A stretch of 64,000 bases of DNA from Prevotellaceae bacterium (lineage in GTDB: Bacteria > Bacteroidota > Bacteroidia > Bacteroidales > Bacteroidaceae), in the NCBI GenBank assembly GCA_015257125.1, contig JABZKU010000009.1, forward strand, positions 10,473 through 74,472, read 5' to 3'. The notes below the pieces were generated by a model. The model did no database searches. It was given only the letters and a program-made list of their open reading frames with translations, and was not told the origin of the DNA. The position numbers and the translations under genes were made by a program. Of this stretch, positions 13,196-51,922 are shown piece by piece; positions within the stretch are counted from its first letter, which is position 1; each line of letters opens with the position of its first letter.

Positions 13196-13662
13196 CGCTC
13201 AAGAAAAATTTGCATCTTGACAATTGCCGTGCTAAAAAACTTATGCCGACAGAAAAAACGGGCGACACACTTCCCTTTCGCGCCCACCCCGTCGCACCAC
13301 ATCACTCCTCAAGAAGAATCGTCGAGCAAGATTTGCATACATCGCGCTTTTCGTCCTGCGAAACAGCCCGAAAATCACAAGATGATGGAAAGCAAGGCAC
13401 CGGCTACCGCCGAGAACGACTGCCGAATTGCACAAAACGCGCAGAAGGTCGGAAGTACCTATCGGAAACAGCCAACTTCGGATGAGTGCGTGGAGGTGAG
13501 TTATTTAACCCCATCGGAGCGGTTTCGGAAAACCTCTTCTTTGGACACGTTGCAGACGAAGTAAAATATAAAAATTGCCTATTCTGCCTAACAAAACACA
13601 CATAAAACATAATCGTTGAAAGATCGCTCGCAGAAAATCCCACAAATATCGCCGCAATCTCG

Positions 13663-13670
13663 TATTTTTG
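13663..13670 (+). promoter_or_regulatory. candidate Bacteroidota sigma-A -7 box (TATTTTTG) upstream of giant gene 1
   Basis: Matches TAnnTTTG about 125 nt upstream of the ATG at 13796. No clear -33 TTTG. Confidence 0.3.
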
Positions 13671-13795: not shown

Positions 13796-16700
13796 ATGCA
13801 AAGTACAAGTACCTCTAAGCAGTGGTTCTTCGGACTGTGTTGCACATTGTTGTTGTTATGCGCAAGCGCTCTCCCGTCGGCAGGACAAAACTGTCCGAAC
13901 TTCGGGTGGAACGACTTCACCAAGTCGATTGTGCAGCCCAACTTGGACTGCAACAAGCCGGGCGAGGTGACGATACGCTACAGCAACAACGTCGTCGGCG
14001 TCGACGAGGTGCACTATCAGTTCGGATCCGGAACCAGCGGCCCTTGGTTTCACGAAGTCGATGCCGCCGCGCCGGGATCGACCGTGAAGGCCGAAATCCC
14101 TACATCGATGAGCGGAAAATCGCTCTTTGTGCGCGTGACGACCAAGTGTGGCACCGACACCCGTTCCAATGTGTGGAACATGGGCAACATCATTGCTCAA
14201 AAGACGGAAACCATCACCCTACAAGGCTCGAGCACACCGGCCGGTAGCGGTACGGGGTCGAGTGGTGGTATCACCGTGTGGCTCAATGGCCCCTCGGGAA
14301 TCACAGAGGCCACCTTCAAGCTCTACAAGTGGCACGGCACTGCGGTGCTGGCCAGCCAACGCAGCACGCGCCCGTATGAGGGGGTGACGTTCTTCAATTT
14401 GGAGAAAGGCGACTACGAAGTGAAAGTAGAAGCCAAGCCGGCTTGTACCCCCACCACAACGGCTTCCAACTGGGACACGGATCACTTCAACCTCTCGAAG
14501 GTGATCTACGTCGGCTCATTTAATTTGCAGGTTACTTCTATCCCTGCACGCGGTACCTGTACCGGTGGTGTGAAAGTTGAGCCTTCGAAAGTGACGGGTG
14601 TGCAACAAATGGAGTACGTCCTCACCACACAGGCTGATCGCAACACCCCTATTCAAGCCTTTACGGCCAACTATCCTAATTTTGCCCACACCTTTACGGG
14701 CTTGCCGGCCGGACAATACACCGTGCGTGCGACAGAAAAGACCGGCAACAGCCAAGTGAGTTCGAACTTCAACGTAGGCAACCAAAATGCTTCGCCCGCT
14801 GTCACGGTCAACCACCACACTCTCCGTGGAGTGGCTGAAGGTGAGGTGAATATTCGCCTGGACAACACCACCGAGGCATGTCCGGCCAAACTGACCCTCA
14901 CGCGCGACAACACGACTTCGGGGTTGCCCTTCACCACGATGGTGAAGAACAACATCACCGAAGAAAACACGCTGTTCGAGGGACTTACCGAGGGTAACTA
15001 CACGATCACAGCCGAATATGGAGGTCAATCGTTCTCGGCGAAATTCGGTATCGCTCATTCGACCATGGGCTACTTGTACAACCGCGGCGTAACGCAGGCG
15101 AACAGCATCTGCGACCCTTCGGGTAGTGCCAACTGGTTGTTGTCGGGTGGTTTCTACTACAATCCGCTGGAAGTGAAGATCGTGGATCGCAACACGCAGA
15201 ACCTCGTTCGTAAATTCACACTTCCGGCAGGACAGACGTATTTCGAAACGAAGGGACTCTTCCCCGGCGACTACACGCTCACCGTGGGGTACGAAGCGGC
15301 GAACCAATTTACGACGTCTAATTTCTCGATTGCCCCGAAAGACAACGTACAGGGATACCTGAGTTTCGCGCTGGACGAGCCCACAGAATTTTGCGGCGAC
15401 CAACCGATGGCAAAAATCGCGGTGAACTTCATTGGTGCTGGTGGCATTGAAAACTACCCGGGCACACAAAAGTTCATGAACGGCGCCACTTTCGAAATCT
15501 ATGACGCCGAAGGCAACTTCTTGTACTCGGGCAACATGCCGCAACTGACGGGCAATGCGAAATCGACTATTGAAAGTCCCTTTGCCCCCAACAGAGGCCA
15601 AATCAAGGTGAAGCCGACTTGCGGTTACCCGATTCTCACTTACACGCTCTCCAGCATCAATGGAATGAAGGGAGCTTACCTCTTCAGCCCTGATTTCACC
15701 TATCGTGGCTGCGGAAGCCGCGGAACAAACGTGGATCTTCGCGTGCTGGACACCAAGAACAACGTGGTACCCCTCATTACCTACACGGTGAAGAAGAAAA
15801 CCGGGGAACTCATCGGCACCTACGAAATGAAGGAGGGGGTGAATACCGCCATCTTTGCCAACATGGAACCCGGTGACTACGACGTGGAATGGTATCCGCA
15901 ATGTAAGCCCGACCAGAAGCACCAAGAAACCTTCCGTGTGGAAGACAAGGTGAACGAAACAAGACGTGAAATTAGAGGAGCAGTCTGTGAAGATCAAGGT
16001 TATATTCGCATTGACTTCACCAGTTTCCGCAACATCAACGGCTGGCGCTACGAACTGATTCGAAAGAACGACAATAAACTGATGCGCGTCTATGGTAGTG
16101 TCAACAGCACTGTAGTTTCATTCGAACGCGTACCGGCCGGCGATTATATCGTGAAAGCCATTCCCATTGTGGAGTGTGGTGATATTACGCCCGGTGAATT
16201 TGAAGTCACTGTGCCTGCCATTACCGCCGGATCAGAAATCAGCGACCCTATCTACCTTTGGACTCGCGACGCCGATGCATTGCCTTTCCAATATGTGGGT
16301 AAGGTACGCTACTACACGCGTCTTCCATATAGTTATGTCAAATGGCGTGTGCTGGATGTGTCCACGAATGCCGAAATCAAGAAGGGCGAAGTGCATCCGG
16401 TGGCCAACAACACGGGCACCTTCCCCATCGTCGTAGAGGGATTGCCCCACACTTACAAAATTGAATTTGAGACCCCTTGCGGAACATACACACGCATCGA
16501 CTCGCTCAATTTGGCCAACCGCAAGCAATTGCCGGGCTTTGAACTAACCACCATTGCCGGTAACACCGAGTGCAACACAACGCCTTCGCTCACGGTGAAG
16601 TCGCGCCTGAAAGCGGCCGGGCTTCCCGACAAGGCCTCGAGAATCCAACTCTACAAGTACGTCGATAAGGGAGATGGCTACAAATGGCACTTTGACCAAG

Positions 16701-19700
16701 AGGTGGCGGATGCCAATGCGATCATCGAAACCAAGACCTTTGAGAACTTGGATCCCGGTATTCAATATTATGTGAACTACTTCTACGACGGAACGAGTGA
16801 CCGACAGCAGATTGGTATCCCCGGCAACGCAGGTACCATGTCAGTACCTGTGTATACGTCGAGCTTCAGCCCGAAGGGCACGGCCATCCTCACAGTGAAT
16901 CCCTACGCGGGGACTCCCGGTTCGACAATGGAGGTCGTGGTGACAGACAATCAGCAGAACGAAATCTTCAATAAGACGGTGTCGGCCACCGAAGCAACGA
17001 AGATCGAGGTGAAAAAGCCTGCCACCGGTTTTACGGTCAAGACCAAAGTGCTCAACGGCTGCTTTAAGGACAAGACGTTCACGTCGTACCTTTATCCTAC
17101 GACGACTCCCGTCTTTAGTTTCGACACGCGCACCAACAGGATGCAGTGTAAGAACGACGGTGAGATCACGATGATTTTGCCCGAGGCTTTCCACGATGTG
17201 GATCAAGTGCACTACACGCTGAAGAAAATAACGGGCACGCAATACACCGACGTGGCTGAAACGACGAAGCCAGCTGAACCGAAGACCTTCATCGGTCTGG
17301 AAGCCGGCACCTATGAGATCTCCGCTCGCGCAACAGTCTTCAAAGATGAGACCGGACAACCGAAGGTGATGGACTTCAAACGCAACGTGCAGCTCACGAC
17401 GCCTTATAGGGACGGTCTTTACGCTACGGTACGTCCGGACTACATGGTATCGACGCGAAGCGAATGCGCCCAAGGACGCATCGGTTTGAACATTGAAAAG
17501 GGATCGGGTAGATATCGCGTCTTCTTGAAGAAAACACCCGACGGTGTATTGCCCGAACCGAAGGAACTCTTCACCGATGGTATCTACTCCTCGATGCGCA
17601 ACAAGTTGTGGGGTGAAAACTTCAAGCCCGGTCACTATGCACTGACGGTGACGGATGGCTGTATGGAACGTGACATTCCCGATGCCGAGATTCTCGAAAT
17701 GCCGAACTTGGCCAGCGCTAGCTTCAACCGTTGGTATATGAACGGCGACAAGCGCATGAAGAAAGAACTCGGAGAAAAGGTTGACTCGTTCTTGTATCAA
17801 GTAAAATTCGACCCCTCTGCTTTCCCCGCCAGCTACCAACAGACGGCATACCGCTCTTATGAAGTGCAAGTCGTGGGTAAGGGGCAGGCTCCCGACGACA
17901 CCCAGTGGAAGAGCAACTGGAATACGCCCAACGATGGCCAAGCCATTCTGGACAACTACTCAAAGCGCTTCAATAACTGTGATGGCGTGGACATCTTGCT
18001 TCGCATGAAGAACTGTCCCGAGACCCTGATCCGCGTTCCGACTACGATCGATGTAATCAACATGTTCTACGGTAGTTGGCAATTGCTGAAGTGTAATACG
18101 GTGCAGTGGATTTTCACCGATGGTGAGATTGGCCATAAGTATCATCTGAAAGTCAAGAACACGACGGACAATGTGGTGGTTTACGAAAAAGACATCACCT
18201 ACACCTCACGCGAACAATACCTCACGCGCGATCCGGAGTTGGAATTCCCCTCTGACAAGAGTTATCACTTAGAGATGACACCGTCAGACTATTGTGGTAA
18301 TCCGGTCTATCACTCTCCCTACAACTTTAACCGCGTGGAACGTATTTACAGATACTCTTTGGACGATGGCCTCATCATGTCGGACTGCGATGGTCGCCGC
18401 TTGGCGATCTATGGCTGGACGGATTGTAAACTGCCGATGAAGTACTTCGTTTATGAAGTGACTGCTACCGGAGAGAATCTTGTTGCGCAAAGTGGTAACT
18501 ATGTTCCGGAAAGATGGTACAGCACCTATAAGTTCCTGAAAGATCACCGCTACATCATTCGCGTAGTAGAATACGGACAACCCGAAACGACTAAGATTGA
18601 TCTTGTAGACTTCACGCTCAACTATCGTTTGCCCAGCGGCTACAAAAAGTCTGTTGACTATTTATGGTCTACGCAAACGATGTGTGGCTCGGCTTATGAC
18701 GCTACGAAAAAAGCCTACAACCTGAATGCGCTTCATTGGTTCTTCGGTACGGCGGACTGGACAGGGGTTCCTCCCGTGGAGCAAAAGACCTACGTGACCA
18801 TCCCGAACATGAAGATCGTTGCCACACAAAAAGAGGCACCGCATCGCAAGTTTGTATCCACGAAAGTGAGTCGTTACAATACGACGTATATGAGACACGA
18901 AGCATGGAAGGAAGAACTTGCTGACGGATCACTCATCGACGCGGCTTATGCTCCGGAAGGTAAATACACCGTGGTGGCTCAAACGGATGGCTGCGGCGAG
19001 ATCAACTTGGGAGACGAGTACTTGGGACGCCCGACGATCGATCTCTCGGCTTCGACCGTAACTTCGGCTTGTGATGGTAAGTTTACGGTTACGCCGAAGG
19101 GCACAATCACTTACCATGGTAGCACCGAAGAAGCGGAAATTACTTCGTTCTACGTTCAAGGTGATAACGCCAATACGACTCGCAACTGGGGTCAATCCTT
19201 CGATACTTACCAACGCCTATTCACGCTGGTGGTTAACATGAAGCGCAAGAGCGACGGTAAGACTTGTACGACGACTTGGCCTTTCTCGATGAGCAACTAC
19301 GTGCTCGACTTTGACCAGTCTCAGAGCTTGAGTATGTTCTGCACCGACTCGGGTAAGGGTATCATCCACATGGCTCTGAAGGGTGGTAATGCACCTTATA
19401 CTTACAAGTTGATGTCTCTCGACGGTACGGAAATTGCCCGCAAGACTGTGCCCGGTGCCGTGGACTTCGAACATGGTAAGTTGGGTGAACGCTATCGTAT
19501 CACGGCTACCGATGCCTGCGGATTGACTTGGATTCACCAAGATGTGTTGCTGCAAGACCCTGCTGCAATTTCATCTTCGATGACTATCGAGACATCCTTC
19601 TGTGCCGGTGATCGGGCTAAACTTGCTGCCCGTGAATTTCCTGGTGCAACATACTTATGGCACTTGCCCGATGGTTCGACAAAAGCCGGCCGCGTAATTG

Positions 19701-20431
19701 AGTTCGAAGCCAAAACAGCGAATGCCGGTGAGTTTATCGTTGATATCCATCTGACAACTTGTACGGTAACGCTGTATGGTAAGCACACGGTTGGTATTGC
19801 AAGTATTAAAGAAGCCAGTGGTTTGATCCTCACACAACAAGCTTGCGCGGGTGAACCGGTTGCTTTCAATCTTGATCCTGCAAGCGCAACCATCGACGGT
19901 GAGAAAGCCGATGCGGATGAAATTGAATATCAGTGGGAACGTACTGCTACACCGGACGATGAGTCTACTTGGACTCCGATTCGCAATGCAACGGAACAGA
20001 ACCTGACATACAATGCCGCTGCCCCGGGTGTTTACTATGTTCGCCGTACGGCAAAAATCGGCGACTGTAAGGCGATCAGTGACCAATCAAAGTTGACGGT
20101 TATTGCGGGTATTAATGTCGCTATGACTCCGGATGAGCAGTCAAGAACGATCAATGATAAGAATCCCTTCACGCTCACGGCCGGTATTGTAACGGGTAAT
20201 CCGAATCGCACTTACCAATGGCAACGCAGTGCCGACAAGAAGCATTGGGTGAACATCGGTACAGATGAAACCTTCACCGAAACGAAGCGTTTTGGTAACA
20301 CGGTTTACTACCGTCGAATTGTTTCTGCCGGTGCATGTAGCATCGAAGGTCAACCGATCACGGTTCGTTTCAAGAAGCGTTGGCCGGCTTACATCAACCC
20401 GCAGGTTCGTCAGCGTACGCTCGATGATTAA
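13796..20431 (+). CDS. giant secreted cysteine-patterned repeat protein with SprB-like repeats (2211 aa from ATG 13796)
   Basis: N-terminal signal peptide (KQWFFGLCCTLLLLCASALPSAGQ), then ~20 repeated ~90-100 aa modules. Each module has a conserved Cys and a GG..Y.Y motif (e.g. CTDSGKGIIHMALKGGNAPYTYKL) resembling Pfam SprB repeats. It is a paralog of the minus-strand gene at 22077..28685. No recognisable T9SS type A/B CTD. Confidence 0.8.
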   Translation: MQSTSTSKQWFFGLCCTLLLLCASALPSAGQNCPNFGWNDFTKSIVQPNLDCNKPGEVTIRYSNNVVGVDEVHYQFGSGTSGPWFHEVDAAAPGSTVKAEIPTSMSGKSLFVRVTTKCGTDTRSNVWNMGNIIAQKTETITLQGSSTPAGSGTGSSGGITVWLNGPSGITEATFKLYKWHGTAVLASQRSTRPYEGVTFFNLEKGDYEVKVEAKPACTPTTTASNWDTDHFNLSKVIYVGSFNLQVTSIPARGTCTGGVKVEPSKVTGVQQMEYVLTTQADRNTPIQAFTANYPNFAHTFTGLPAGQYTVRATEKTGNSQVSSNFNVGNQNASPAVTVNHHTLRGVAEGEVNIRLDNTTEACPAKLTLTRDNTTSGLPFTTMVKNNITEENTLFEGLTEGNYTITAEYGGQSFSAKFGIAHSTMGYLYNRGVTQANSICDPSGSANWLLSGGFYYNPLEVKIVDRNTQNLVRKFTLPAGQTYFETKGLFPGDYTLTVGYEAANQFTTSNFSIAPKDNVQGYLSFALDEPTEFCGDQPMAKIAVNFIGAGGIENYPGTQKFMNGATFEIYDAEGNFLYSGNMPQLTGNAKSTIESPFAPNRGQIKVKPTCGYPILTYTLSSINGMKGAYLFSPDFTYRGCGSRGTNVDLRVLDTKNNVVPLITYTVKKKTGELIGTYEMKEGVNTAIFANMEPGDYDVEWYPQCKPDQKHQETFRVEDKVNETRREIRGAVCEDQGYIRIDFTSFRNINGWRYELIRKNDNKLMRVYGSVNSTVVSFERVPAGDYIVKAIPIVECGDITPGEFEVTVPAITAGSEISDPIYLWTRDADALPFQYVGKVRYYTRLPYSYVKWRVLDVSTNAEIKKGEVHPVANNTGTFPIVVEGLPHTYKIEFETPCGTYTRIDSLNLANRKQLPGFELTTIAGNTECNTTPSLTVKSRLKAAGLPDKASRIQLYKYVDKGDGYKWHFDQEVADANAIIETKTFENLDPGIQYYVNYFYDGTSDRQQIGIPGNAGTMSVPVYTSSFSPKGTAILTVNPYAGTPGSTMEVVVTDNQQNEIFNKTVSATEATKIEVKKPATGFTVKTKVLNGCFKDKTFTSYLYPTTTPVFSFDTRTNRMQCKNDGEITMILPEAFHDVDQVHYTLKKITGTQYTDVAETTKPAEPKTFIGLEAGTYEISARATVFKDETGQPKVMDFKRNVQLTTPYRDGLYATVRPDYMVSTRSECAQGRIGLNIEKGSGRYRVFLKKTPDGVLPEPKELFTDGIYSSMRNKLWGENFKPGHYALTVTDGCMERDIPDAEILEMPNLASASFNRWYMNGDKRMKKELGEKVDSFLYQVKFDPSAFPASYQQTAYRSYEVQVVGKGQAPDDTQWKSNWNTPNDGQAILDNYSKRFNNCDGVDILLRMKNCPETLIRVPTTIDVINMFYGSWQLLKCNTVQWIFTDGEIGHKYHLKVKNTTDNVVVYEKDITYTSREQYLTRDPELEFPSDKSYHLEMTPSDYCGNPVYHSPYNFNRVERIYRYSLDDGLIMSDCDGRRLAIYGWTDCKLPMKYFVYEVTATGENLVAQSGNYVPERWYSTYKFLKDHRYIIRVVEYGQPETTKIDLVDFTLNYRLPSGYKKSVDYLWSTQTMCGSAYDATKKAYNLNALHWFFGTADWTGVPPVEQKTYVTIPNMKIVATQKEAPHRKFVSTKVSRYNTTYMRHEAWKEELADGSLIDAAYAPEGKYTVVAQTDGCGEINLGDEYLGRPTIDLSASTVTSACDGKFTVTPKGTITYHGSTEEAEITSFYVQGDNANTTRNWGQSFDTYQRLFTLVVNMKRKSDGKTCTTTWPFSMSNYVLDFDQSQSLSMFCTDSGKGIIHMALKGGNAPYTYKLMSLDGTEIARKTVPGAVDFEHGKLGERYRITATDACGLTWIHQDVLLQDPAAISSSMTIETSFCAGDRAKLAAREFPGATYLWHLPDGSTKAGRVIEFEAKTANAGEFIVDIHLTTCTVTLYGKHTVGIASIKEASGLILTQQACAGEPVAFNLDPASATIDGEKADADEIEYQWERTATPDDESTWTPIRNATEQNLTYNAAAPGVYYVRRTAKIGDCKAISDQSKLTVIAGINVAMTPDEQSRTINDKNPFTLTAGIVTGNPNRTYQWQRSADKKHWVNIGTDETFTETKRFGNTVYYRRIVSAGACSIEGQPITVRFKKRWPAYINPQVRQRTLDD

Positions 20432-20571
20432 ACCTTGATTTTCTTCAGAGCAGAAATTACTAGTATTAGATTCTGCTTTGCTGAAAAGGACAAAATAATT
20501 GGCGTCCGTATCAAACGAAAGTTTTGATACGGACGCCTTTGTTTTGTCTATGGATATAGCAGTTCGAAAAA
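19276..20571. repeat. left arm of a ~1.3-kb near-identical inverted repeat (3' end of giant gene 1 plus 3'UTR)
   Basis: The reverse complement matches 21937..23232 almost base for base. About 330 nt were compared by eye with 1 mismatch, and the encoded C-terminal ~385 aa differ at 4 positions. Confidence 0.8.
20501..20546 (+). terminator. intrinsic terminator of giant gene 1
   Basis: ggcgtccgtatcaaa-cgaaagt-tttgatacggacgcc is a perfect 15-bp stem followed by tttgttttg. It is part of the duplicated arm. Confidence 0.65.
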
Positions 20572-20678
20572 GGGTGATACTGTCCCCAAACGTGTGTAAG
20601 CTCGATACTGTCCTATAAAAGTGTGTAAGCTCCAAAGTTCTTATATTTGTGGTGAAATCAAAAATCAAATCAAGAACA

Positions 20679-21329
20679 ATGAAGCTTACAATGGAACAAA
20701 GATCGGAAATAATTTCCGAACCGGCCTCTAGTGAGGCAGGTTTTAATGAGTTGATGCGCGTACTTTTGGATAGTTTTTCCAAGCAGGAACGTGCCCTCTT
20801 CTTAGAGGAACATAAAGGTGAACAAGGCAACGGTTTCCGTCCTCGTCGTTGGCGTGGTCACGGTTGCAGCTTTCAACTTCGCATTCCTCGCACTCGCTCG
20901 GGTACTTTTCAACCGATCATACTCGGCATCTTGGCTGCTCAGGAAAGCGAGCGTGCGCTGCTTTTTCATGAGTTGTATGCGCGTGGACTTTCCTGTGAAG
21001 ACATCGCCGAGGTGGGTCGCCGCATCTACGGTCATCATTACAGCAAACAGCAGATGAGCCGGCTCTCCGGGGCTTGTTATGAGGAGATCCAAGAGTGGCT
21101 TGCGTGCCGACTTACTTCTCATTATTTGGCCGTCTACATCGATGCCACGTTCTGCAGCACGCGTCGTGACGGGAGCGTCTCGAAGGAGGCCTACTACACG
21201 ATGTTGGGACTGCTGCCCGACGGGAGTCGTGAGGTGCTCACGGTGGTTAATCACCCAAAGAAGGGGCAATTGCATGGGAAATGGAGCTCGAAGCGCTCAA
21301 GGAACGCGGCGTGGAACAAATCGATTTGA
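20679..21329 (+). CDS. IS256-family transposase, N-terminal part (orfA; frame 0, contains first catalytic D)
   Basis: ...LAVYIDATFCSTRRDG...LTVVNHPKKG, then the frame closes at 21329. The start is set at the MKLTMEQ ATG; the ORF track begins at 20649. Confidence 0.7.
   Translation: MKLTMEQRSEIISEPASSEAGFNELMRVLLDSFSKQERALFLEEHKGEQGNGFRPRRWRGHGCSFQLRIPRTRSGTFQPIILGILAAQESERALLFHELYARGLSCEDIAEVGRRIYGHHYSKQQMSRLSGACYEEIQEWLACRLTSHYLAVYIDATFCSTRRDGSVSKEAYYTMLGLLPDGSREVLTVVNHPKKGQLHGKWSSKRSRNAAWNKSI
21254..21260 (+). other. C_CCA_AAG slippery heptamer: candidate programmed -1 ribosomal frameshift site (or 1-bp deletion in an A-run)
   Basis: In the orfA frame the codons are cac CCA AAG aag. Shifting -1 gives CCC AAA gaa ggg gca ..., which translates PKEGAIAWEMELEALKERGV and continues the IS256 transposase (orfB frame). 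This matches the X_XXY_YYZ rule. Confidence 0.45.
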
Positions 21330-21829
21330 TTGTCTCCGATGCGTTGAGCGGTATCGAAAATGCGGTGTGTTCGGCTTTTCCCACGGCGCTGCACCAACTC
21401 TGCGTCGTGCATTTCAAACGGAAGGTGTTGAACACCGTTTCCACCAAAGACAAAGCCGAGGTCGGTGAGGAGCTCAAAGCGCTCTTTCCCGTGGAGCATA
21501 CCGACATTATGCCTCTTGCGGCCTATGAGAATTTGCGTACCTTCGCTCGGCGTTGGGGCAAGAAATACCCGAGCCTTGCCCGATTGGACAGAGAACGCAA
21601 TGCGGCCTATTTCACTTATCTAAGGTTTCCCGAAAGTGCACGCCGAATGATTTACTCGACCAACTGGGTGGAACGTCTCAATCGCTGCTACAAGCGCACT
21701 TTACTCATGCGTGGAGCGATGCCTTCTCCCGCTTCCGTGGTTTATCTTTTGGGCTCTGTTGCCAAGGAGAAAACGGAAGGGACGTATGCAAGACGGCTAC
21801 CGTATTTTCGGGAATGGATAATCAAGTAA
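21257..21829 (+). CDS. IS256-family transposase, C-terminal part (orfB; -1 frame; second D and E of DDE)
   Basis: ...IDLIVSDALSG... and ...YSTNWVERLNRCYKRTL carry the second D and the E of the IS256 DDE triad. The track lists it as 21281..21829, and the open -1 frame begins just after a TAA at 21249-21251. Confidence 0.7.
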   Translation, partial: KEGAIAWEMELEALKERGVEQIDLIVSDALSGIENAVCSAFPTALHQLCVVHFKRKVLNTVSTKDKAEVGEELKALFPVEHTDIMPLAAYENLRTFARRWGKKYPSLARLDRERNAAYFTYLRFPESARRMIYSTNWVERLNRCYKRTLLMRGAMPSPASVVYLLGSVAKEKTEGTYARRLPYFREWIIK

Positions 21830-21859
21830 AACGACAAATAAAAATCAACATCACAAATT

Positions 21860-21893
21860 CCCCTCCGGCTTGGGGTACCCCAAGCCGGAGGGG
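21860..21893. repeat. perfect 34-bp palindrome inside the IS, 30 nt after the transposase stop
   Basis: cccctccggcttggg-GTAC-cccaagccggagggg. It could act as a terminator or as a transposase/host-factor site. Confidence 0.5.
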
Positions 21894-21936
21894 AAGGACG
21901 AAGGAGTATCTTACACACTTTTTCGGACATTACCCT

Positions 21937-23232
21937 TTTTTCGAACTGCTATATCCATAGACAAAACAAAGGCGTCCGTATCAAAACTTTCGTTTGATAC
22001 GGACGCCAATTATTTTGTCCTTTTCAGCAAAGCAGAATCTAATACTAGTAATTTCTGCTCTGAAGAAAATCAAGGTTTAATCATCGAGCGTACGCTGACG
22101 AACCTGCGGGTTGATGTAAGCCGGCCAACGCTTCTTGAAACGAACCGTGATCGGTTGACCTTCGATGCTACATGCACCGGCAGAAACAATTCGACGGTAG
22201 TAAACCGTGTTACCAAAACGCTTCGTTTCGGTGAAGGTTTCATCTGTACCGATGTTCACCCAATGCTTCTTGTCGGCACTGCGTTGCCATTGGTAAGTGC
22301 GATTCGGATTACCCGTTACAATACCGGCCGTGAGCGTGAAGGGATTCTTATCATTGATCGTTCTTGACTGCTCATCCGGAGTCATAGCGACATTAATACC
22401 CGCAATAACCGTCAACTTTGATTGGTCACTGATCGCCTTACAGTCGCCGATTTTTGCCGTACGGCGAACATAGTAAACACCCGGGGCAGCGGCATTGTAT
22501 GTCAGGTTCTGTTCCGTTGCATTGCGAATCGGAGTCCAAGTAGACTCATCGTCCGGTGTAGCAGTACGTTCCCACTGATATTCAATTTCATCCGCATCGG
22601 CTTTCTCACCGTCGATGGTTGCGCTTGCAGGATCAAGATTGAAAGCAACCGGTTCACCCGCGCAAGCTTGTTGTGTGAGGATCAAACCACTGGCTTCCTT
22701 AATACTTGCAATACCAACAGTATGTTTACCATACAGCGTTACCGTACAAGTTGTCAGATGAATATCAACGATAAACTCACCGGCATTCTCTGTTTTGGCT
22801 TCGAACTCGATTTCGCGGCCGGCTTTTGTAGAACCATCGGGCAAGTGCCATAAGTAAGTTGCACCAGGGAATTCGCGCGCTGCAAGTTTAGCCCGATCAC
22901 CGGCACAGAAGGAGGTCTCGACAGTCATCGAAGATGAAATTGCATCAGGGTCTTGCAGCAACACATCTTGGTGAATCCAAGTCAATCCGCAGGCATCGGT
23001 AGCCGTGATACGATAGCGTTCACCCAACTTACCATGTTCGAAGTCCACGGCACCGGGCACAGTCTTGCGGGCAATTTCCGTACCGTCGAGAGACATCAAC
23101 TTGTAAGTATAAGGTGCATTACCACCCTTCAGAGCCATGTGGATGATACCCTTACCCGAGTCGGTGCAGAACATACTCAAGCTCTGAGACTGGTCAAAGT
23201 CGAGCACGTAGTTGCTCATCGAGAAAGGCCAG
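21937..23232. repeat. right arm of the ~1.3-kb inverted repeat (3' end of giant gene 2 plus 3'UTR)
   Basis: Mirror image of 19276..20571; the stop codons map onto each other (20429 <-> 22079). Confidence 0.8.
21961..22007 (-). terminator. intrinsic terminator of giant gene 2 (mirror copy)
   Basis: Same 15-bp stem as at 20501, with a T-tract on the minus strand (acaaaacaaa on the top strand). Confidence 0.65.
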
Positions 23233-26200
23233 GTCATCGTACATGTCTTACCGTCGCTCTTGCGCTTGATGTTCAAAACCAAGGTAAACTCACGCTGATA
23301 AGTACCGAAAGACTGTCCCCAGTTGCGAGTTGTGTTATAGCTGTCACCCTGAACATAGAAAGATGTAATTTCCACGTCTTCCGTACTTCCAAGATAAGTC
23401 AGCGTACCCTTAGGTGTTACCGTAAACTTACCGTCACAAGCGGCATCTACCGTCGTGGCGCTGAGGTCGAGAATCGGGCGACCGATGTAGTCGTCTTCCA
23501 TCGGAATGTCACCACAATCGGTGTGCGCCACCACAGTGTATTCGCCTTCCGGAGCGTAGGCATCGATCAATGTACCATCAGGCAACTCTTCCTTCCACGA
23601 ATAGCGGTACATAGTAGTTGAGTAGCGCGTTACGCTTGTTGCAACGAACTTACGTGTAGGATTAGCTTTCGGACGAGCTACGATCGTCATCTTCGGAATC
23701 GTCAAATAGGTCTTCTGCTCCACTGCAGGAACTCCATCCCAACTTGGATAGAAGTAGCTCGAGAAATTATTCATGTAGTAACCATTCTTGGAAGCGGTGT
23801 AGCCATTACCACAGAAGGTTTGGCCTTTGAACGTATAATCTCTCGACACCGTGTACTTTGAAGGTAAACGATAGTTGAGCGTGAAGTCAACGAGTAGATC
23901 CTTTGTGGTTTCGGGTTGACCGTATTCCACCACGCGAATGACATACTTCTTGTCCTTCTTGAACTTGTAAGGGCTGTACCATACTTCAGGAACATAGTTA
24001 CCACTCTCGCTTACGAGTGTTTCCTGCGTACCATTTACCTCATAAGCGTAGTACTTGAGAGGCAGCCTACAGTCTGTCCAACCCCGGATGGCCAAAAGAC
24101 GACCATCGCAATCCGACATAATACTTTGACCATAGTCAAGTGAGTACTGATAGTTACGATTGATCGCATTGAAATATCTCGTTGTTCCATAAATCGGGTC
24201 ACCACAATAATCTGTCGGCGTCATGTCGATGCGATAACTCTTATTTGCGGGAAACTCGAGATCAGGATCACGAGTGAGGTATTGTTCACGAGAAGTATAG
24301 TTTACTTCTTTGTCCACTAGTACAACATTATCCGTTGTACGAGTAACCTTTATCTTGTACTTGTGACCAATTTCACCATCGGTGAATACCCACTGTACCG
24401 TATTACACTTTAGTTGTTGCCAAAAACCACTAAAAGCATAACGAATATCTCGATTATCGGTAATACGCGTCAGCGTGGCCGGACAGTTCTTCAAACGAAG
24501 AAGGACGTCTACCCCATTACAATTATCGAAACGTTTCGAATAATCGCTAATATAGGATTTACCATCGTTACTGTCGCCCCAGCTGCTCTTCCACTGACTA
24601 TCATCAGGGGCAGCCCCTTTCGCTACTACTTGAATTTCGTAGGCGCGATAGGCTGTCTGGCGGAAACCTTCAGGGAAGTCCGAGGGGTCGAATCTTAAGT
24701 AGTAATTGACAGAATCTCGAGTTTCGTCTTTTTTGTTTCTCAGACGAGAATCCAAGCGCAGCTCCCACCAGGCCCAAGTAATCTTGGGTGTGTTGGGCAT
24801 TTCGAGAATCTCTGCATCTGGGATATCACGTTCCATACAGCCATCCGATACGGTCAGCGCGTAATGGCCGGGCTTCAATCCGCTACCCCAAAGCTTATTA
24901 TAATAATTTGTTCCGATCGGGTCAGTGAAAATTTCACGAGGCTTAGTCAAAACACCTTCGTCAGGGGTCTTCGTCAAGAAGACGCGATACTTACCGGAGC
25001 CCTTTTCGATGTTCAAACCGATGCGACCGTTGGGACATTCGTCTCTGGTCGGCACCATATAATCCGGGCGCACCGTGGCATAGAGACCATCTCGATAAGG
25101 TGTGCTCAACGTTATGGTCTGTTCAAAGTCTTGCACCTGAGGTTGGCCATTTTCGTCTTTGAAGACAGTGGCACGACCGGTCACCTTGTACGTACCGGCT
25201 TCCAGACCGATGAAGGTCTTCGGTTCACCGGGCTTCGTGGTTTCGGCCACGTCGGTATATTGCGAACCGGTGGTCTTCGTCAGCGTATAGTGGATTTGAT
25301 CCACGTCGTGGAAGGACTCCGGCACCACCATGGTGATTTCACCGTCGTTCTTACACTTCATGTTGTTTTTACGAAGCGAGAAGCTAAACTTCGTACCTTG
25401 GCGCGGTGTATTCCACGTGCTGGCAGATTTACCGGCCATACAGCCGTCTACCATCGTTGCTTCGGCAGTAAAAGAACCATACGGTTTACGCACATCGAAG
25501 TTATAAGGTGCATCGGCGGGAACTTCGCCATTGAAGAGTTCGGTGCCGTCCGTGCTCTTGATAACCAAACGCATCTTTGTACCCGGTTCGGCCGGATTGA
25601 TGCGAGCCGTAAGCGTAGAAACACCCTTCAAGCTGAAGTCCGTAGAATTCAATTGAAGGCTCAAATTTGATGTTTCTCCAATATTGATGCCTTGGAAATA
25701 ATCACTCGTTCCGTTGTAGTAATAACGAATGGCATAGGAACCGGACTCCAATTCGGTGAAAGTGTGGCTTTCGATGATAGAAGTCGGATTGGTTTCTTCC
25801 TTCAAAGGACGATAGGCAGCGTTTCCGTCGACCACCGTGTATTTGTACAGGACGATCTTCGTAGCCTTTTCGGGCAGCCCGGCTGACTTCAACTTAGAGA
25901 GCACCGTAATATACCCCTTCTTATTGCAAGTTGTGTTCACGCTACCCAGGAAGTAGCTAAAACCGGGCATGTTCTTGCGGTTATCCAAATAGAGAGAATC
26001 CAAACGGGTATATTTACCGCAAGGAGTTTCAAACTCAATGTTGTAAGTGTGCGGCAATTTATCTACAACAAAGCCGAAACCACCTGTCTGTGTTTTTGAG
26101 GGACGTGCTTCCCCCTTGTTGAGTTCAGCTCCGGTCACCACATCCAGCACACGCCATTTTATATTATCCAGCGGATAGACAGAATAGTAACGTGCCTTAC

Positions 26201-28685
26201 CATCATTCTGATAGGGTGTGGGGTTCTGGTCGCGAGTCCAAAGATAGATGTAGTTTTCTTGCGGTTTTTCTTTGGGCACGGTGACCTCAAATGAACCGGG
26301 GGTAATCTCTCCACACGTTACGATAGGAGTAGACTTCACAATATAATTACCGGCAGGAACGCGGCTGAAATAAACACTGCTTGTCTGTCCGGAACCGTAG
26401 ACGCGCACCACATTACCTGTGGCCTTGTCTACCAATTCGTGGCGCCAAGCATTGATGTTGGTAAAGTTGTAAAAACTGATGGATATAGCGCCCTCTTCAC
26501 CACAACGAGCAGGAGTTACATTGCGGTTCAATTCTTTAACCGTATCTTCAACGCGGAACTCATCGGTGTGTTTCTGCGTGGGGGCACATTGCGGCCACCA
26601 CTCCACTTTATAATCACCGGGCTGCATGTTGGCGAAGATTGCTGTATTCACACCCTCCTTCATCACATACTCACCTACCAAAGCACCGGTAGCCTTGTCG
26701 GTTACCTTGTAAGTCATGAGCGGAGCCACTTGCCCTTTCATATCGAGGACACGCAAATCCACGTCGGTTCCCGTACCACCGCAACCTCGGAAGGTAAAGT
26801 TCGGGCTAAACTTGTAGCCGGAGTTACCATACATCGTGTAGTCCTGGTAGGGATAACCACAAGCTGACTTCACACGAAGTCTATAATAAGGCTCTGCAAC
26901 CGGCGTTTCGATGTAACTTGCCGCGTTACCGGTCAACGCAGGCATTGCACCGGAATACTGGAAAACACCTTGCTGATTATAGATTTCAAATGTTGCCCCA
27001 TTGAGGAACGAAGAAAGCATGGGGGCATTCTCGACACCTCCGGTTCCCGTGTACTTCACGGGAATGCGCATCATCGGCTTTTCGCCGCAGAAATCGGTGC
27101 TAACCGCCGTGCTGTTAAAGTCAAACGAGAGATTCCCTTCGAGAGAATTCTTCAGACCGATATCGAAGTCTAATTTCGTCTCCAATCCGGAGCTCTCATG
27201 ACGTGCCGTGACCGTGTACTCTCCCGGGAAGAGGCCTTTGACTTCCACCGTTCTTTCACCGGCGGGTTGAGTCCATTCTTTCACCAAAGCACCACCATCA
27301 CGATAGGTGACACGCATCTTCAGCGGGGCATAATAAATGCCATTGTAGAGATACCAAACTTGTCCACCGGAGGCCTCACACAATCTATTGGCAGGCGTAA
27401 TTGAGCTATACGAAAAATAGCCGAGAGTACCTTCACTGATCTGGAAGTTGCTCGTCTTCGTGATGCCACCGTATTCGGCTTTCACCTGATAATTTCCCTT
27501 CGGGAGATTTTCGATAAGGGTGACTTCTTCGGTCACATTCGTCTTCACGACGGGCGTGAAGGCCACCCCATCCGTGCGCGTAATGGTCAGCTTGGCGGGG
27601 CAAGCCTCAGTAGTGTTTGGCAATTGGATATTGACCGCTCCTTCGTTTACGCCGGGCAGTGTTCCGTGCTGAACGTTGGCATAGACATCATTCTCTTGAT
27701 TGTAAATGTTGAAGTAGTTGGTCATCGAGCTGTTGCCCGTCTTTTCCGTCGCCTTTAAGACATAGTTACCGGCTTGCACTCCCGTGAAAGTGTGGGAAAA
27801 GTTCGGGTAGGTGGCCGTAAACGTCTGAACCGGTGTATCAGGCGTACTTTGATTGGCAATGGTGTACTCAATGTTCTGCACACCCGTCACTTTCGACACC
27901 TCGACTTTGACACCACCCGGGCAAGTACCGCGGGCAGGAATCTGCGTGGTCACCAAATTGAAGGAACCCACCGAGATGCCGGAAGACAGATTAAAGTGGT
28001 CCGTATCCCAATTGGAGGGCGGATTGGCCGGGGTACAAGAAGGCTTGGCTTCCGCCTTCACCACATAGTCGCCCTTGGGCAAATTGAAGAACGTCACGCC
28101 ATCATAGGGACGCGTGGAACGCTGAGATTGAATGACCGTGTTCTGGTCATCGAATTTGTAGAGCTTAAAGGTGGCTTCCGTAAAACCGGTGGGACCGACC
28201 AAGGAGGCTTGCACACCACCACTTGCACCCGTACCACTACCGGCGGGTGTACTGCTCACACTCAGTCTAATATCCTGAGCCTTTTGCGATGAGACACCCG
28301 ACATGTTCCACCAGTCTGTGCGTGTATTCGTACCGCATGTGGTCGTGATACGCACATAAAGTGTCTTGCCGTTCATGCTTGCCGGAATGTCCGCTTTGAC
28401 GGTCGCACCCGGTGCCGGCGCATCGACCGTTTCAAACCAAGGGCCGTTCGGTCCGGAACCGAATTGATACTTCACTTCGTCCACTCCGACGATGTTGTTG
28501 CTGTAGCGTATGGAAACGGTTCCCGGCGTATTACAGTCCGAGTTGGGCTGCATTTGCGACTTCGTAAAATCGTTCCATTGGAAATTCGGGCAATTCTGCC
28601 CCACTGCGGGGAGACTACCCAAACAGAGCAACAATGTACAGAGGAGCCCGAAGATGCTTGATCTTAGGGGAATTGTTTTCTCCAT
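22077..28685 (-). CDS. giant secreted cysteine-patterned repeat protein with SprB-like repeats (2202 aa), paralog of 13796..20431
   Basis: Signal peptide MEKTIPLRSSIFGLLCTLLLCLGSLPAVGQ, with N-terminal ~100 aa about 75% identical to giant 1. Internal blocks range from ~50% to ~85% identity, and the C-terminal ~385 aa are near identical. Confidence 0.8.
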   Translation of the reverse strand: MEKTIPLRSSIFGLLCTLLLCLGSLPAVGQNCPNFQWNDFTKSQMQPNSDCNTPGTVSIRYSNNIVGVDEVKYQFGSGPNGPWFETVDAPAPGATVKADIPASMNGKTLYVRITTTCGTNTRTDWWNMSGVSSQKAQDIRLSVSSTPAGSGTGASGGVQASLVGPTGFTEATFKLYKFDDQNTVIQSQRSTRPYDGVTFFNLPKGDYVVKAEAKPSCTPANPPSNWDTDHFNLSSGISVGSFNLVTTQIPARGTCPGGVKVEVSKVTGVQNIEYTIANQSTPDTPVQTFTATYPNFSHTFTGVQAGNYVLKATEKTGNSSMTNYFNIYNQENDVYANVQHGTLPGVNEGAVNIQLPNTTEACPAKLTITRTDGVAFTPVVKTNVTEEVTLIENLPKGNYQVKAEYGGITKTSNFQISEGTLGYFSYSSITPANRLCEASGGQVWYLYNGIYYAPLKMRVTYRDGGALVKEWTQPAGERTVEVKGLFPGEYTVTARHESSGLETKLDFDIGLKNSLEGNLSFDFNSTAVSTDFCGEKPMMRIPVKYTGTGGVENAPMLSSFLNGATFEIYNQQGVFQYSGAMPALTGNAASYIETPVAEPYYRLRVKSACGYPYQDYTMYGNSGYKFSPNFTFRGCGGTGTDVDLRVLDMKGQVAPLMTYKVTDKATGALVGEYVMKEGVNTAIFANMQPGDYKVEWWPQCAPTQKHTDEFRVEDTVKELNRNVTPARCGEEGAISISFYNFTNINAWRHELVDKATGNVVRVYGSGQTSSVYFSRVPAGNYIVKSTPIVTCGEITPGSFEVTVPKEKPQENYIYLWTRDQNPTPYQNDGKARYYSVYPLDNIKWRVLDVVTGAELNKGEARPSKTQTGGFGFVVDKLPHTYNIEFETPCGKYTRLDSLYLDNRKNMPGFSYFLGSVNTTCNKKGYITVLSKLKSAGLPEKATKIVLYKYTVVDGNAAYRPLKEETNPTSIIESHTFTELESGSYAIRYYYNGTSDYFQGINIGETSNLSLQLNSTDFSLKGVSTLTARINPAEPGTKMRLVIKSTDGTELFNGEVPADAPYNFDVRKPYGSFTAEATMVDGCMAGKSASTWNTPRQGTKFSFSLRKNNMKCKNDGEITMVVPESFHDVDQIHYTLTKTTGSQYTDVAETTKPGEPKTFIGLEAGTYKVTGRATVFKDENGQPQVQDFEQTITLSTPYRDGLYATVRPDYMVPTRDECPNGRIGLNIEKGSGKYRVFLTKTPDEGVLTKPREIFTDPIGTNYYNKLWGSGLKPGHYALTVSDGCMERDIPDAEILEMPNTPKITWAWWELRLDSRLRNKKDETRDSVNYYLRFDPSDFPEGFRQTAYRAYEIQVVAKGAAPDDSQWKSSWGDSNDGKSYISDYSKRFDNCNGVDVLLRLKNCPATLTRITDNRDIRYAFSGFWQQLKCNTVQWVFTDGEIGHKYKIKVTRTTDNVVLVDKEVNYTSREQYLTRDPDLEFPANKSYRIDMTPTDYCGDPIYGTTRYFNAINRNYQYSLDYGQSIMSDCDGRLLAIRGWTDCRLPLKYYAYEVNGTQETLVSESGNYVPEVWYSPYKFKKDKKYVIRVVEYGQPETTKDLLVDFTLNYRLPSKYTVSRDYTFKGQTFCGNGYTASKNGYYMNNFSSYFYPSWDGVPAVEQKTYLTIPKMTIVARPKANPTRKFVATSVTRYSTTMYRYSWKEELPDGTLIDAYAPEGEYTVVAHTDCGDIPMEDDYIGRPILDLSATTVDAACDGKFTVTPKGTLTYLGSTEDVEITSFYVQGDSYNTTRNWGQSFGTYQREFTLVLNIKRKSDGKTCTMTWPFSMSNYVLDFDQSQSLSMFCTDSGKGIIHMALKGGNAPYTYKLMSLDGTEIARKTVPGAVDFEHGKLGERYRITATDACGLTWIHQDVLLQDPDAISSSMTVETSFCAGDRAKLAAREFPGATYLWHLPDGSTKAGREIEFEAKTENAGEFIVDIHLTTCTVTLYGKHTVGIASIKEASGLILTQQACAGEPVAFNLDPASATIDGEKADADEIEYQWERTATPDDESTWTPIRNATEQNLTYNAAAPGVYYVRRTAKIGDCKAISDQSKLTVIAGINVAMTPDEQSRTINDKNPFTLTAGIVTGNPNRTYQWQRSADKKHWVNIGTDETFTETKRFGNTVYYRRIVSAGACSIEGQPITVRFKKRWPAYINPQVRQRTLDD

Positions 28686-29773
28686 CTTAGTTAATCATTT
28701 ATTGTATCTGTGTAATGAATTGAATTATAGAATTTCTATTGTTCACGATCCATGCAAGTGCTCATTTGCGCAAGCGCTCATACGGATTGAGATTTTCCCA
28801 TCGTTTACTTCATCGACAAACGTCGCACTCGAATTCAAATTATCGCGCGCGACCACTGTCATAAGATTACATTCCAAGGACAAATATACGCGATGTGAAG
28901 GAGAAGACGCAGTTTTTGAGGGTAAAATGCGTCCCGAACCTCAAAAACACCTTGTTTTGACACACACAGTCATCAAAATCGGCGGTTTTCGTGAAAACAA
29001 AGCAGTCGTTTGCCTTGAATTGGAATCATCGTCCCGTTCAGGAATGCAACTTTATTGACTGAAAACGAAAGTCGACTCAAAAATCAGGAACAAACAGGCT
29101 ACATGATTAGGGACGTGGCTTGCCCATCTTCTCAACTCCTCCTCATCGTTTTGCACCGTCCTCTTAGATTTCTTCTTTCTTCACACCTTTCTCCTTTTCA
29201 TTTTCCCCATCATCCATGAGTTTTTTGGGTAGACGCATACACGAGTAAAGAGGGCATTGGAAATCCATCTCTGAAAAAGCACCTCAACCTTCAACACAAA
29301 AATCAGCTGATTACAAACGAATTAACAGGACACGCTTCACATAGAGATTAGAGAGTGGCCAAGTTCTTTCTCCTCTCCACTTTGTTTGCCCTCGGTAGCG
29401 GTAGAGCTTCCCACACAAGGGTGTGCGAATCCTTTCTTTTTTACTTAAAAGACAGCGGCACGCTCGAGGTATTTTCTTGCGCCGAGGCGAAAAACAACTT
29501 GCCCGTACGCACATGCGCAACGCGCATTTCACTCCCCTTTTTCGACATGGCCTCACCTCAGTTCGGCCGGTCTTGGCTAACGGCTATTTTATCTTTGCAC
29601 GCGTTGAAAATCGGGGCTATTCTCATCGCGTTGCCTGCATCGCGATGATGCTTTCCTTACATGAACTCTCGGCATTGAGTCAACATGAGTGCAAACAGCG
29701 GGTAAGGACAAACACAACGCACAGCAGCATAAGATGAATTCCCTTCGGTGTCATCACAAACCCGGCAATAGAC

Positions 29774-42474: not shown

Positions 42475-42566
42475 CGTGGAGTTTTTATGGAGATTTGCCT
42501 ACAAAAATACGGCTTTTCGGCCGACATTGTGTAACTTTGCCACTTAATAATCATGTAACTAATCAG

Positions 42567-45239: not shown

Positions 45240-45424
45240 TGCGCGAACGGACGACGCCACGGCTACGAACCTTTTGACTACTTTTTAATTCTCGCAGCGC
45301 TGTTTCGGCAGCGTGAGCACGCACAGAACTCCCCGATGCACCTCTTCTCAAAGGCGCACGGGGAGTTTTGCCACCCACCCCCGAAACAACCACTGCTCAT
45401 TTTCAACTCAAAACAATACGAATT

Positions 45425-46525: not shown

Positions 46526-46647
46526 GATCGCGGCGCTTTTCATCCCGCATTTCCGTTTTTCCCGACCGCTCCTCGTCCTTTTCGACGAGGAGCGGTTGGC
46601 GTTTGTAGTACTGTCCACACCACCCGAAACATCGGAGGGAGTTTTGT

Positions 46648-46715
46648 CGAAAAAGTCCACCGGTTTTGCGACAAACTCCACTGCTTTCACGCAAAAGTCC
46701 ACCGTTTTTTCCTGC
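46648..46715. repeat. array of three ~22-bp tandem units, core AAAAGTCCAC(C/T)G-TTTT (member of a dispersed intergenic repeat family)
   Basis: The three units are cgaaaaagtccaccggttttgcg, acaaactccactgctttcacgc and aaaagtccaccgttttttcctgc, with a 21-22 bp period. Similar arrays lie at 3140-3205, 9172-9196, 11767-11815, 13128-13190, 29774-29841, 54076-54162 and 63034-63124. Confidence 0.7.
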
Positions 46716-47130
46716 TTCTTTTGGCCTATGTGAGCACAACGGCCGACGATTGGGGAAAAGTTCACCGCGCGGGAGAAAATGCGCCACAAACAAGGCGGCG
46801 CATTCCATGGTTTCTCCGACCGCGGTGGGTGTTTTTCTCCTCATCGCCCCTCTTTCCGTTGCGAAAGAGGGGCGATGTTTTTGCCCTTCGCCCGCAGCCG
46901 GCGAAAACGACCTGTCGGCACGAAGGAAAGGGTGAGGGCGGGCGAAAGTGTAGACGAGGCGGTGCGGAAGCACGGGCGGAAAGGCGTGGGCACAAGGGCA
47001 CAAAAAAGCGCCGGCCGACGTGAGTTAAACGTCTGCCGGCGCGAAGAGGAAGCACTGTGAGCGAAGCGAACACTTAGTCGTGAGCCGTCACCATCAAGGC
47101 GCGGCGACTAAGCTGTTTCGCCGCAGGAGC

Positions 47131-51108
<3,978 letters not shown>

Positions 51109-51858: not shown

Positions 51859-51922
51859 AGGGGGAAACAGAGTGAGGAGGAAGAAGCGAAGCGCGGAGAT
51901 TGCGCGGGATCAGCACAGCCAT

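Follow-up and report, generated by a model that had tools for sequence, protein, structure and literature searches.

Why do two giant genes that differ substantially along most of their length remain identical at their ends? The question is posed by a 64,000-nt stretch of DNA from a Prevotellaceae bacterium (assembly GCA_015257125.1, contig JABZKU010000009.1, positions 10,473 to 74,472 of the forward strand; hereafter the window), where two tail-to-tail genes, A and B, encode paralogous proteins of about 2,200 residues with putative signal peptides. To our knowledge, the giant immunoglobulin (Ig)-repeat surface proteins of Bacteroidota (SprB, GhpA, S-layer proteins and adhesin cargo) are all thought to be delivered to the surface through type IX secretion system (T9SS) sorting domains. 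We propose, with a probability of roughly 0.6, that A and B represent an unannotated group of such Ig-repeat surface proteins, whose C-terminus undergoes concerted evolution and carries a short tail in place of the usual T9SS C-terminal domain (CTD). A and B would be extended cell-surface fibres or adhesins with their variable body exposed, and the C-terminal module and tail would serve to carry them across the outer membrane or to attach them to it, the role played by the type A or type B sorting domain in other Bacteroidota giants. The sequences show that recurrent gene conversion between the inverted copies keeps the last ~1.3 kb identical, including ~140 nt of 3′ flank; the rest of the gene diverges quickly under relaxed purifying selection.

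Overall, A and B are 66% identical, and this identity is distributed as a mosaic, as a first-pass annotation made from the sequence alone had described. Measured in 50-residue segments, identity falls to a minimum of 32% at residues ~1046-1095 (the weakest central blocks lie at 32-52%), reaches ~80% at residues 51-100 and 1146-1200, and stands at 96-100% over the last ~390 residues. To the first-pass annotation, the mosaic suggested an adhesin variation or diversification system, in which the body would be a patchwork of conversion tracts. The sliding-window profile does not support this. Over residues 1-1800, the A/B profile correlates with the profile of paralogues compared across genomes (r = 0.87, against the two paralogues of a related genome, L003), and with the orthologue profile (r = 0.77). 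Synonymous-site identity over these residues is only ~0.25-0.68; synonymous sites are identical only in the last ~390 codons (0.83-1.0 within the palindrome arm described below). Because of the correlation of 0.87 and the low synonymous identity, the body mosaic is taken to be the result of uneven constraint. Conversion tracts in the gene body were ruled out by the cross-genome profile comparison and by synonymous-site identity.

The excess of identity within genomes is limited to the last ~380 residues, where the window shows +0.16 to +0.30 and L003 +0.09 to +0.15. Per 50-residue segment, the C-terminal modules of the window pair are 96-100% identical and those of the L003 pair 82-100%, compared with 70-94% between genomes. 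In a neighbour-joining tree of the body region, A-type and B-type genes from different species fall into separate, clean orthology groups. The duplication therefore predates those species, and A and B are best regarded as old paralogues.

Since the two genes converge, their identical 3′ ends make up an inverted repeat of 1,567 nt (19008-20574 and 21934-23500), with a perfect zone next to the centre and two more divergent zones beyond it (Table 1). The arms extend ~140 nt past both stop codons, terminators included, and reach precisely up to the terminal repeats that bound an insertion sequence (IS) of the IS256/Mutator family. The transposase of this element is split over two frames (20649-21329 and 21281-21829), the two halves matching Pfam Transposase_mut (PF00872) with 99.5 and 131.3 bits, and its imperfect terminal inverted repeats begin GGGTGATACTGTCC... 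and GGGTAATGTCC... A second, internal copy of the terminal repeat lies at the left end, at ~20600-20628. Elements of the IS256/Mutator family produce a direct target-site duplication of 8-9 bp. No such duplication borders the IS here, the flanks being inverted copies of each other (...TTCGAAAAA / IS / TTTTTTCGAA...).

This arrangement could be explained by one recent IS256-mediated inverted duplication or rearrangement, rather than by recurrent functional conversion. The exact abutment of the arms on the IS and the missing target-site duplication speak for such an event, and if the transposase cuts at the ends of the IS, the breaks could be repaired from the opposite arm. The intergenic region has also been hit by an IS more than once, as the element in a further relative, L016 (16835-17303), occupies another position in the opposite orientation. 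Nevertheless, we consider a single IS-mediated event unlikely. The nested 100% and ~97% zones in the window imply more than one event, and outside the tract the divergence of the paralogues is ancient. The A-IS-B arrangement recurs on L015, an independent metagenome scaffold of 342 kb, with arms that are 100% identical over ~1,200 nt and a 3′ module that is 93-100% identical to its window orthologues per 100-nt segment. Since the arms of L015 are identical to each other yet differ from those of the window, A and B resemble each other within a genome more than each resembles its orthologue, and the 3′ ends were homogenised independently in the two genomes. L015 further retains 37 nt of unique sequence between the flank of B and its IS (16787-18290, with a transposase likewise called as two open reading frames (ORFs), of 259 and 128 residues). 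Finally, the tandem pair of L003 is homogenised at its 3′ end with no IS between the genes, and thus the IS is not required for homogenisation.

The L016 element had first suggested flip-flop inversion of the IS core by recombination between the arms. Junction alignment instead placed the element ~85 nt further from the terminator of B, behind ~85 nt of unique sequence; it is probably an independent insertion, not a flipped core.

Assemblers struggle with perfect inverted repeats, and polishing with short reads can even out differences between repeat copies, such that a collapsed or copied repeat might give a false appearance of identity over the 761 perfectly matching nucleotides. We find an assembly or polishing artefact barely credible. 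There is no N in the window or in the compared loci, and the independent scaffold L015 shows the same structure with sequence variants of its own. In a conspecific metagenome-assembled genome (MAG), assembled independently from short reads, the contigs carrying A and B break at residues ~1845-1872, just inside the repeat, as a genuine repeat would cause. The tandem pair of the third genome, L003, is graded in its identity rather than perfect. Conversion of the 3′ end is thus recurrent, having taken place independently in three genomes (the window, L015 and L003), and continues at the level of strains. Homogenisation may either be favoured by a shared partner or be a mere consequence of the module's high similarity.

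The locus is not static among relatives, and here the expectation of the first reading was borne out: copy number, orientation and location all vary. Between the malate dehydrogenase (MDH) and DUF3109 genes, the window and L015 carry a convergent pair with an IS, L003 a tandem pair, L006 a single A-type gene, and L010 a single gene in the orientation of B. L005 likewise has a tandem pair, on a contig that does not include the flanks, and is 100% identical to the downstream gene of L003. The leader of the L006 gene is 97.7% identical to that of L003, which places both in the same species. L006 follows gene 1 of L003 to ~200 nt beyond the stop codon and then joins the flank found after gene 2, a junction that would fit unequal crossing-over by way of the shared 3′ module, or a cassette that inserts and excises there. 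Recombination of this kind would explain why the slot holds one gene, two tandem genes or two convergent ones.

Giant genes also occur outside this slot. In L002 and L007, B-type genes (starting at 10001) lie downstream of alanyl-tRNA synthetase, a second preferred site seen in these two other genomes. A third, distant paralogue (~29% identity, equal length, same tail) occupies an unrelated locus, L011 (10001-16657), in the same MAG as L008 and L009 and conspecific with the window. Its neighbours encode a TonB-dependent-receptor-like barrel, a DUF4435 protein, an SNF2/PLD helicase and an Eco57I-type restriction-modification methylase.

Such polymorphism could be taken as the mark of programmed adhesin or antigenic variation, in which paralogues swap segments by conversion to generate mosaic variants. 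Conversion between the A and B copies does happen, and the alleles of B are ~8% different at the amino acid level between conspecific genomes, compared with 99-100% identity among flanking proteins. Against the conspecific MAG, the synonymous divergence (dS) of B is patchy, at 0.08-0.35. However, the sole conversion tract is the 3′ end, where conversion homogenises rather than diversifies, and the body profile is already explained by constraint and by its low synonymous identity. A-type and B-type bodies keep to their orthology groups across species; there are no silent partial cassettes, both copies being full-length and equipped with their own promoter box and terminator. The ratio of nonsynonymous to synonymous divergence (dN/dS) against the same MAG is 0.16 for A and 0.18 for B (~0.17), compared with 0-0.04 for flanking genes, and exceeds 1 in no segment of either gene. 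These values indicate relaxed purifying constraint in the gene bodies, with no demonstrable positive selection, and allelic exchange has probably taken place. Among the annotated neighbours (the first 10 kb of the window having been annotated through synteny only), there is no invertase, other recombinase or reverse transcriptase of a diversity-generating retroelement. As for an invertible promoter, the leaders hold only insignificant inverted repeats of 12-27 nt. The active diversification system proposed at first is consequently hard to sustain, and we judge programmed variation to be quite improbable.

Concerted evolution of one module raises the question of what this module is. It is the most conserved part of the giants, and its early designation as special has been strengthened: it is kept identical by conversion and ends in a tail that is invariant throughout a protein family. 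Homologues numbered 59 in a word-indexed search, with more found in an exhaustive one. Full-length members are ~2,100-2,670 residues long and come exclusively from metagenome assemblies; all matches in the genome collection belong to Prevotellaceae/Alloprevotella-like MAGs. The family is abundant in metagenomes, single clusters at 90% identity holding 250-1,100 sequences, and the only name on record for any member is 'hypothetical protein'. The family would thus be previously unnamed, rigid in length, and confined to uncultured Prevotellaceae/Alloprevotella-like bacteria. Only in this giant family do the C-terminal 417 residues form a single unbroken block at the very end of the protein. Every member ends in [AP]-x-[IV]-N-P-[HQF]-[LVI]-R-[LQ]-R followed by 1-5 residues, a rule that holds down to ~29% identity of the module. 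Its first residue invariably lies 8-12 positions before the end of the protein; after the last strand, the protein runs on for ~17 residues into this NPxLRxR tail.

The early observation that neither giant ends in a recognisable type A or type B CTD was confirmed by Pfam and NCBIfam searches and by searches with the last domain. The type A CTD (TIGR04183/PF18962) found no match at the C-terminus of the giants even at E <= 1, the sole TIGR04183 match being spurious and internal (residues 361-414 of B, 16.5 bits). The type B CTD (TIGR04131/PF13585 CHU_C) had no match in either giant, and the last domain and tail, searched alone, matched no family. The same profiles do recognise other proteins that share the Ig-like units. 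The C-terminal units of A and B are homologous to repeats in many other giant Bacteroidota proteins, and the sampled giants outside the family carry TIGR04131 (P0060, 55.7 bits) or TIGR04183 (P0174, P0093 and P0130, 32-45 bits). No lipobox is conserved across the family. The genome itself was said to have a T9SS clearly, and this holds for PorT/SprT, a core component, which scores 235 bits (NF052311, cutoff 125) at 51151-51858; the supposed gldH gene encodes a GldH-like lipoprotein that stays below threshold (50.5 against 78.7 bits).

That the C-terminal Ig module and tail form a previously undescribed signal for outer-membrane export or anchoring is an extension that we offer tentatively and regard as somewhat doubtful. 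The signal would define either a fourth T9SS class or a T9SS-independent route, with conversion keeping the paralogues matched to a single receptor.

Does the rest of the protein resemble a surface fibre? In the numbering of gene A, a signal peptide is followed by a conserved N-terminal domain, ~12 prealbumin-like modules up to residue ~1200, a divergent beta-sandwich region of about six domains at residues ~1200-1800, and the C-terminal Ig module at ~1800-2211. The first-pass annotation had seen ~20 modules, each with a GG..Y.Y motif similar to SprB repeats. In fact, the core GG..PY.Y occurs once per protein (residue 1863 in A, 1854 in B), and Pfam SprB (PF13573) matches one stretch of each at 13.9-14.0 bits, against a cutoff of 28. 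A SprB-repeat architecture was ruled out by this score and by the motif counts. One adhesin-like domain was recognised: SpaA (PF17802) exceeds its cutoff in one module of both A and B (30.4 against 23.1 bits). Sub-threshold Pfam matches were obtained for Y_Y_Y, SdrD_B, CarboxypepD_reg, PKD, SprB and Ig_7, the last of which is CHU_C-associated and scores 21.7-23.8 bits against 27.3. The recurrent strand motif is instead xGxYxVxA, typical of prealbumin/CarboxypepD_reg-like domains, found 10 times in A and 9 times in B where 0.5 would be expected, and spaced ~95 residues apart over residues 200-800. Detectable internal repeats do not run throughout the protein. Profile self-comparison links ~8-12 modules over residues ~30-1200, together with the last Ig-like domains, and gives little repeat signal in residues 1200-1800. 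NCBIfam searches of A and B gave nothing relevant, a sequence search of solved structures nothing meaningful, and no catalytic domain was found in the giants.

Structure models give a similar picture. The C-terminal 414 residues are predicted to form four to five Ig-like domains, with a predicted local distance difference test (pLDDT) score of 83.7, and the closest solved structures are the Ig strings of GhpA and generic Ig arrays. The module would comprise one SprB-like unit (KGG..PYTY, invariant in the family) and three or four Ig_7-like domains. Residues 1190-1800 are modelled as all-beta (pLDDT 66.5) and match macroglobulin (MG) and fibronectin type III arrays with low template modelling (TM) scores. 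Taking modelled and profiled regions together, we estimate a string of roughly 22-24 beta-sandwich domains. Each window protein contains 38-39 cysteines, ~28 of which are invariant or nearly so across the family. Near the island, on the minus strand, lie genes for envelope thiol-disulfide proteins, namely a DsbD-like reductase and two ResA/TlpA-like oxidoreductases (54386-55414, 59406-61541 and 61609-62829). They may matter for the ~38 cysteines of each giant, although the link is hypothetical.

The same models could suggest that the giants are periplasmic or otherwise internal to the envelope, for example as defence proteins resembling alpha-2-macroglobulin (A2M), rather than surface fibres. 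The top structural matches of the central region are the MG-domain arrays of C3 and A2M, the Pfam, NCBIfam and last-domain searches found no outer-membrane secretion signal of known type, and the O-glycosylation sequon is depleted. However, TM scores of only ~0.2 point to generic similarity between beta-sandwich arrays. The giants contain no CxEQ thioester motif, and in the modelled regions (residues ~1190-2202) helix is confined to short turns, a helical thioester domain being absent. An A2M-like central region was ruled out by the absent thioester motif and the low TM scores. Nor does the family share a lipobox. Bona fide T9SS cargo proteins contain repeats homologous to the C-terminal units of the giants, and fast evolution with strain-level allelic diversity is typical of exposed proteins. 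We therefore rate an envelope-internal role as decidedly improbable.

Several considerations weigh against interpreting A and B as surface proteins exported or anchored through their tail. Surface location, dependence on the T9SS and adhesion are all deduced indirectly, and the signal peptide, with cleavage before Gln, was read by eye from the sequence. Across the 341 kb of DNA and the 206 proteins surveyed, the tail is confined to the giants, although a true sorting signal is usually common to unrelated cargo; the tail might rather have a structural or oligomerisation role peculiar to the family. AlphaFold assigns low confidence to the tail, and the structure models cover residue ~1190 to the C-terminus. 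At the loci compared (the window, L003, L004, L011, L007 and L002), no conserved partner gene lies next to any family member, the neighbours being housekeeping or locus-specific, and no PorP/SprF- or PorE-like gene adjoins them. The general Bacteroidetes O-glycosylation sequon D-[ST]-[AILVMT] occurs once in A and three times in B, against 7.4 expected by shuffling. Its observed/expected ratio is 0.37 in the giant family (~2.7-fold depleted; family members are related, not independent), compared with 1.27 in other giants that share the Ig-like units, which is odd for an exported Bacteroidota protein.

If the interpretation of A and B as tail-bearing surface giants is correct, the family has been assembled from the same building blocks as other Bacteroidota giants, with the sorting domain replaced by a short invariant tail. 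Should the tail prove to be a signal, it would give access to a new route of export or anchoring in an uncultured lineage of Prevotellaceae. The locus is also a clean natural case in which concerted evolution is limited to a single functional module, and illustrates how a shared module can drive changes of copy number and orientation in a surface-protein locus.

Table 1. Features of the giant-gene island, in window coordinates
Feature	Coordinates	Strand	Details
Bacteroidetes-type -7 box of gene A (GTATTTTTG)	13662..13670	+	134 nt upstream of ATG 13796
Gene A	13796..20431	+	2211 aa; ORF and translation
Palindrome zone, left arm	19008-19276		65 mismatches in 269 nt; ~76% identity
Left homogenised arm	19277..20571	+	last ~385 codons of A and 140 nt of 3′ flank
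Palindrome zone, left arm	19277-19810		17 mismatches in 534 nt; ~97% identity
Palindrome zone, left arm	19811-20571		0 mismatches in 761 nt; 100% identity
Invariant C-terminal tail codons of A (INPQVRQRTLDD)	20393..20428	+	family-wide motif
Terminator-like hairpin of gene A	20501..20537	+	15-bp stem followed by T-run; inside palindrome arm
IS256/Mutator-family insertion sequence	20572..21935	+	palindrome centre; Transposase_mut and terminal repeats
Right homogenised arm	21936..23231	-	3′ flank and last ~385 codons of B
Terminator-like hairpin of gene B	21971..22007	-	mirror copy of the hairpin of A
Gene B	22077..28685	-	2202 aa; paralogue of A with the same architecture
Invariant C-terminal tail codons of B (INPQVRQRTLDD)	22080..22115	-	family-wide motif
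Bacteroidetes-type -7 box of gene B (GTATATTTG)	28881..28889	-	204 nt upstream of the ATG of B

The basic description of the island stood up well. Coordinates and translations bear out two tail-to-tail giant ORFs, and sequences and GC profile agree with paralogous signal-peptide proteins in an accessory slot of low GC content (~0.46-0.56 over 13-30 kb, compared with ~0.52-0.62 elsewhere in the window). An alternative upstream ATG of gene A at 13736 would yield 2231 residues. Translation more likely begins at ATG 13796, which lines up with the start codon of a related genome's orthologue and gives the protein a normal signal peptide of residues 1-30, again read by eye (MQSTSTSKQWFFGLCCTLLLLCASALPSAG/Q). 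The long leaders noticed at first measure ~820 nt (A) and ~1,255 nt (B) from the flanking terminator to the start codon, and the reported IS element is the IS256/Mutator copy described above. A -7 box of the form GTAT(A/T)TTTG is kept in every aligned leader of the giant genes, and its putative promoter function follows from the match to TAnnTTTG, the known Bacteroidetes -7 consensus. B-type leaders share a block after this box and a partly conserved 5′ untranslated region with a small hairpin (~28810-28856, minus strand). Three of its 13 pairs show compensatory changes among six sequences, which is weak evidence that the block could serve as a regulatory leader for a very long transcript. At gathering thresholds, Rfam matched no family in the leaders or island.

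The flanks are housekeeping genes, with glutamate dehydrogenase and MDH upstream, and DUF3109, a uracil-DNA glycosylase family protein and arginine decarboxylase downstream. Further along, the minus strand carries a cluster of PorT/SprT, the GldH-like lipoprotein and RicT/YaaT (51151-53856). Next to it is a LacZ-type beta-galactosidase of glycoside hydrolase family 2 (47131-51078, minus strand; 1315 residues) with an N-terminal extension of ~180 residues and a C-terminal part of ~95. This enzyme was originally credited with a CTD, an assignment that was not confirmed, as its C-terminal part reaches only 18.5 bits with TIGR04183 (cutoff 23) and has no Pfam CTD match. Large ORFs at 42588-45260 (minus) / 42495-45239 (plus) and at 45278-46789 (minus) have no NCBIfam matches, and no Pfam match except a weak one to YfhO on the plus-strand ORF at 42495-45239.

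How do the giants compare with known systems? The gliding adhesin SprB of Flavobacterium johnsoniae, with 6,497 residues, is the obvious reference. Like SprB and other type B cargo, A and B are Bacteroidota proteins of giant size, exported by Sec and composed of Ig-like repeats, and the repeats found ahead of type B CTDs in other giants are homologous to their Ig_7-like C-terminal units. Unlike SprB and other type B cargo, A and B contain only one SprB-like unit, have no TIGR04131/CHU_C domain, and lack an adjacent SprF/PorP-like gene. Moreover, they keep rigidly to ~2,200 residues, and their body is mostly prealbumin-like rather than composed of SprB repeats. The comparison with type A cargo is similarly divided. 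PorT/SprT is encoded in the genome, many proteins that share the Ig-like units end in a type A CTD, and the last domain of the window giants is likewise an Ig-like beta-sandwich followed by basic residues. However, A and B have no TIGR04183/PF18962 match and continue into the NPxLRxR tail. Type C cargo (ChiA-like, cl41395) carries a ChiA-type C-terminal domain of ~100 residues (PMC10202324). NCBIfam and Pfam, in which no model of this domain could be identified, matched nothing at the C-terminus of A and B.

GhpA, the grappling-hook protein of Aureispira, is likewise a Sec-exported Ig-repeat fibre of giant size; it has disulfides between its domains and a T9SS sorting domain, and PorP/PorE-like genes lie downstream (bioRxiv 10.1101/2024.01.29.577165). 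Its Ig strings (PDB 9flu, 9fls and others) are the top solved structural match to the C-terminal module of the window giants, and its disulfides find a parallel in their 38-39 cysteines. The similarity is at the level of fold only (13-15% identity, TM ~0.3-0.4), and neither the sorting domain nor the PorP/PorE-like neighbours of GhpA are present at the window giants. The body of A and B is reminiscent of Cna-B/SpaA/SdrD-B and CarboxypepD_reg domains, with SpaA above threshold, SdrD_B and CarboxypepD_reg below it, and xGxYxVxA every ~95 residues. Only one module reaches a Pfam threshold, however, the others being very divergent, and the diderm Bacteroidota provide no isopeptide-forming or sortase (LPXTG) context. 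At the DNA level, the closest analogues are general phenomena, arm-to-arm conversion in palindromes and the concerted evolution of paralogue termini. As in palindromes, inverted copies flank a spacer, and the arms have been kept identical up to the spacer, independently in separate lineages. What distinguishes this locus is that only the 3′ ~1.3 kb of the 6.6-kb genes is homogenised, that the spacer is an IS256-family element, and that the same module is homogenised in tandem pairs as well.

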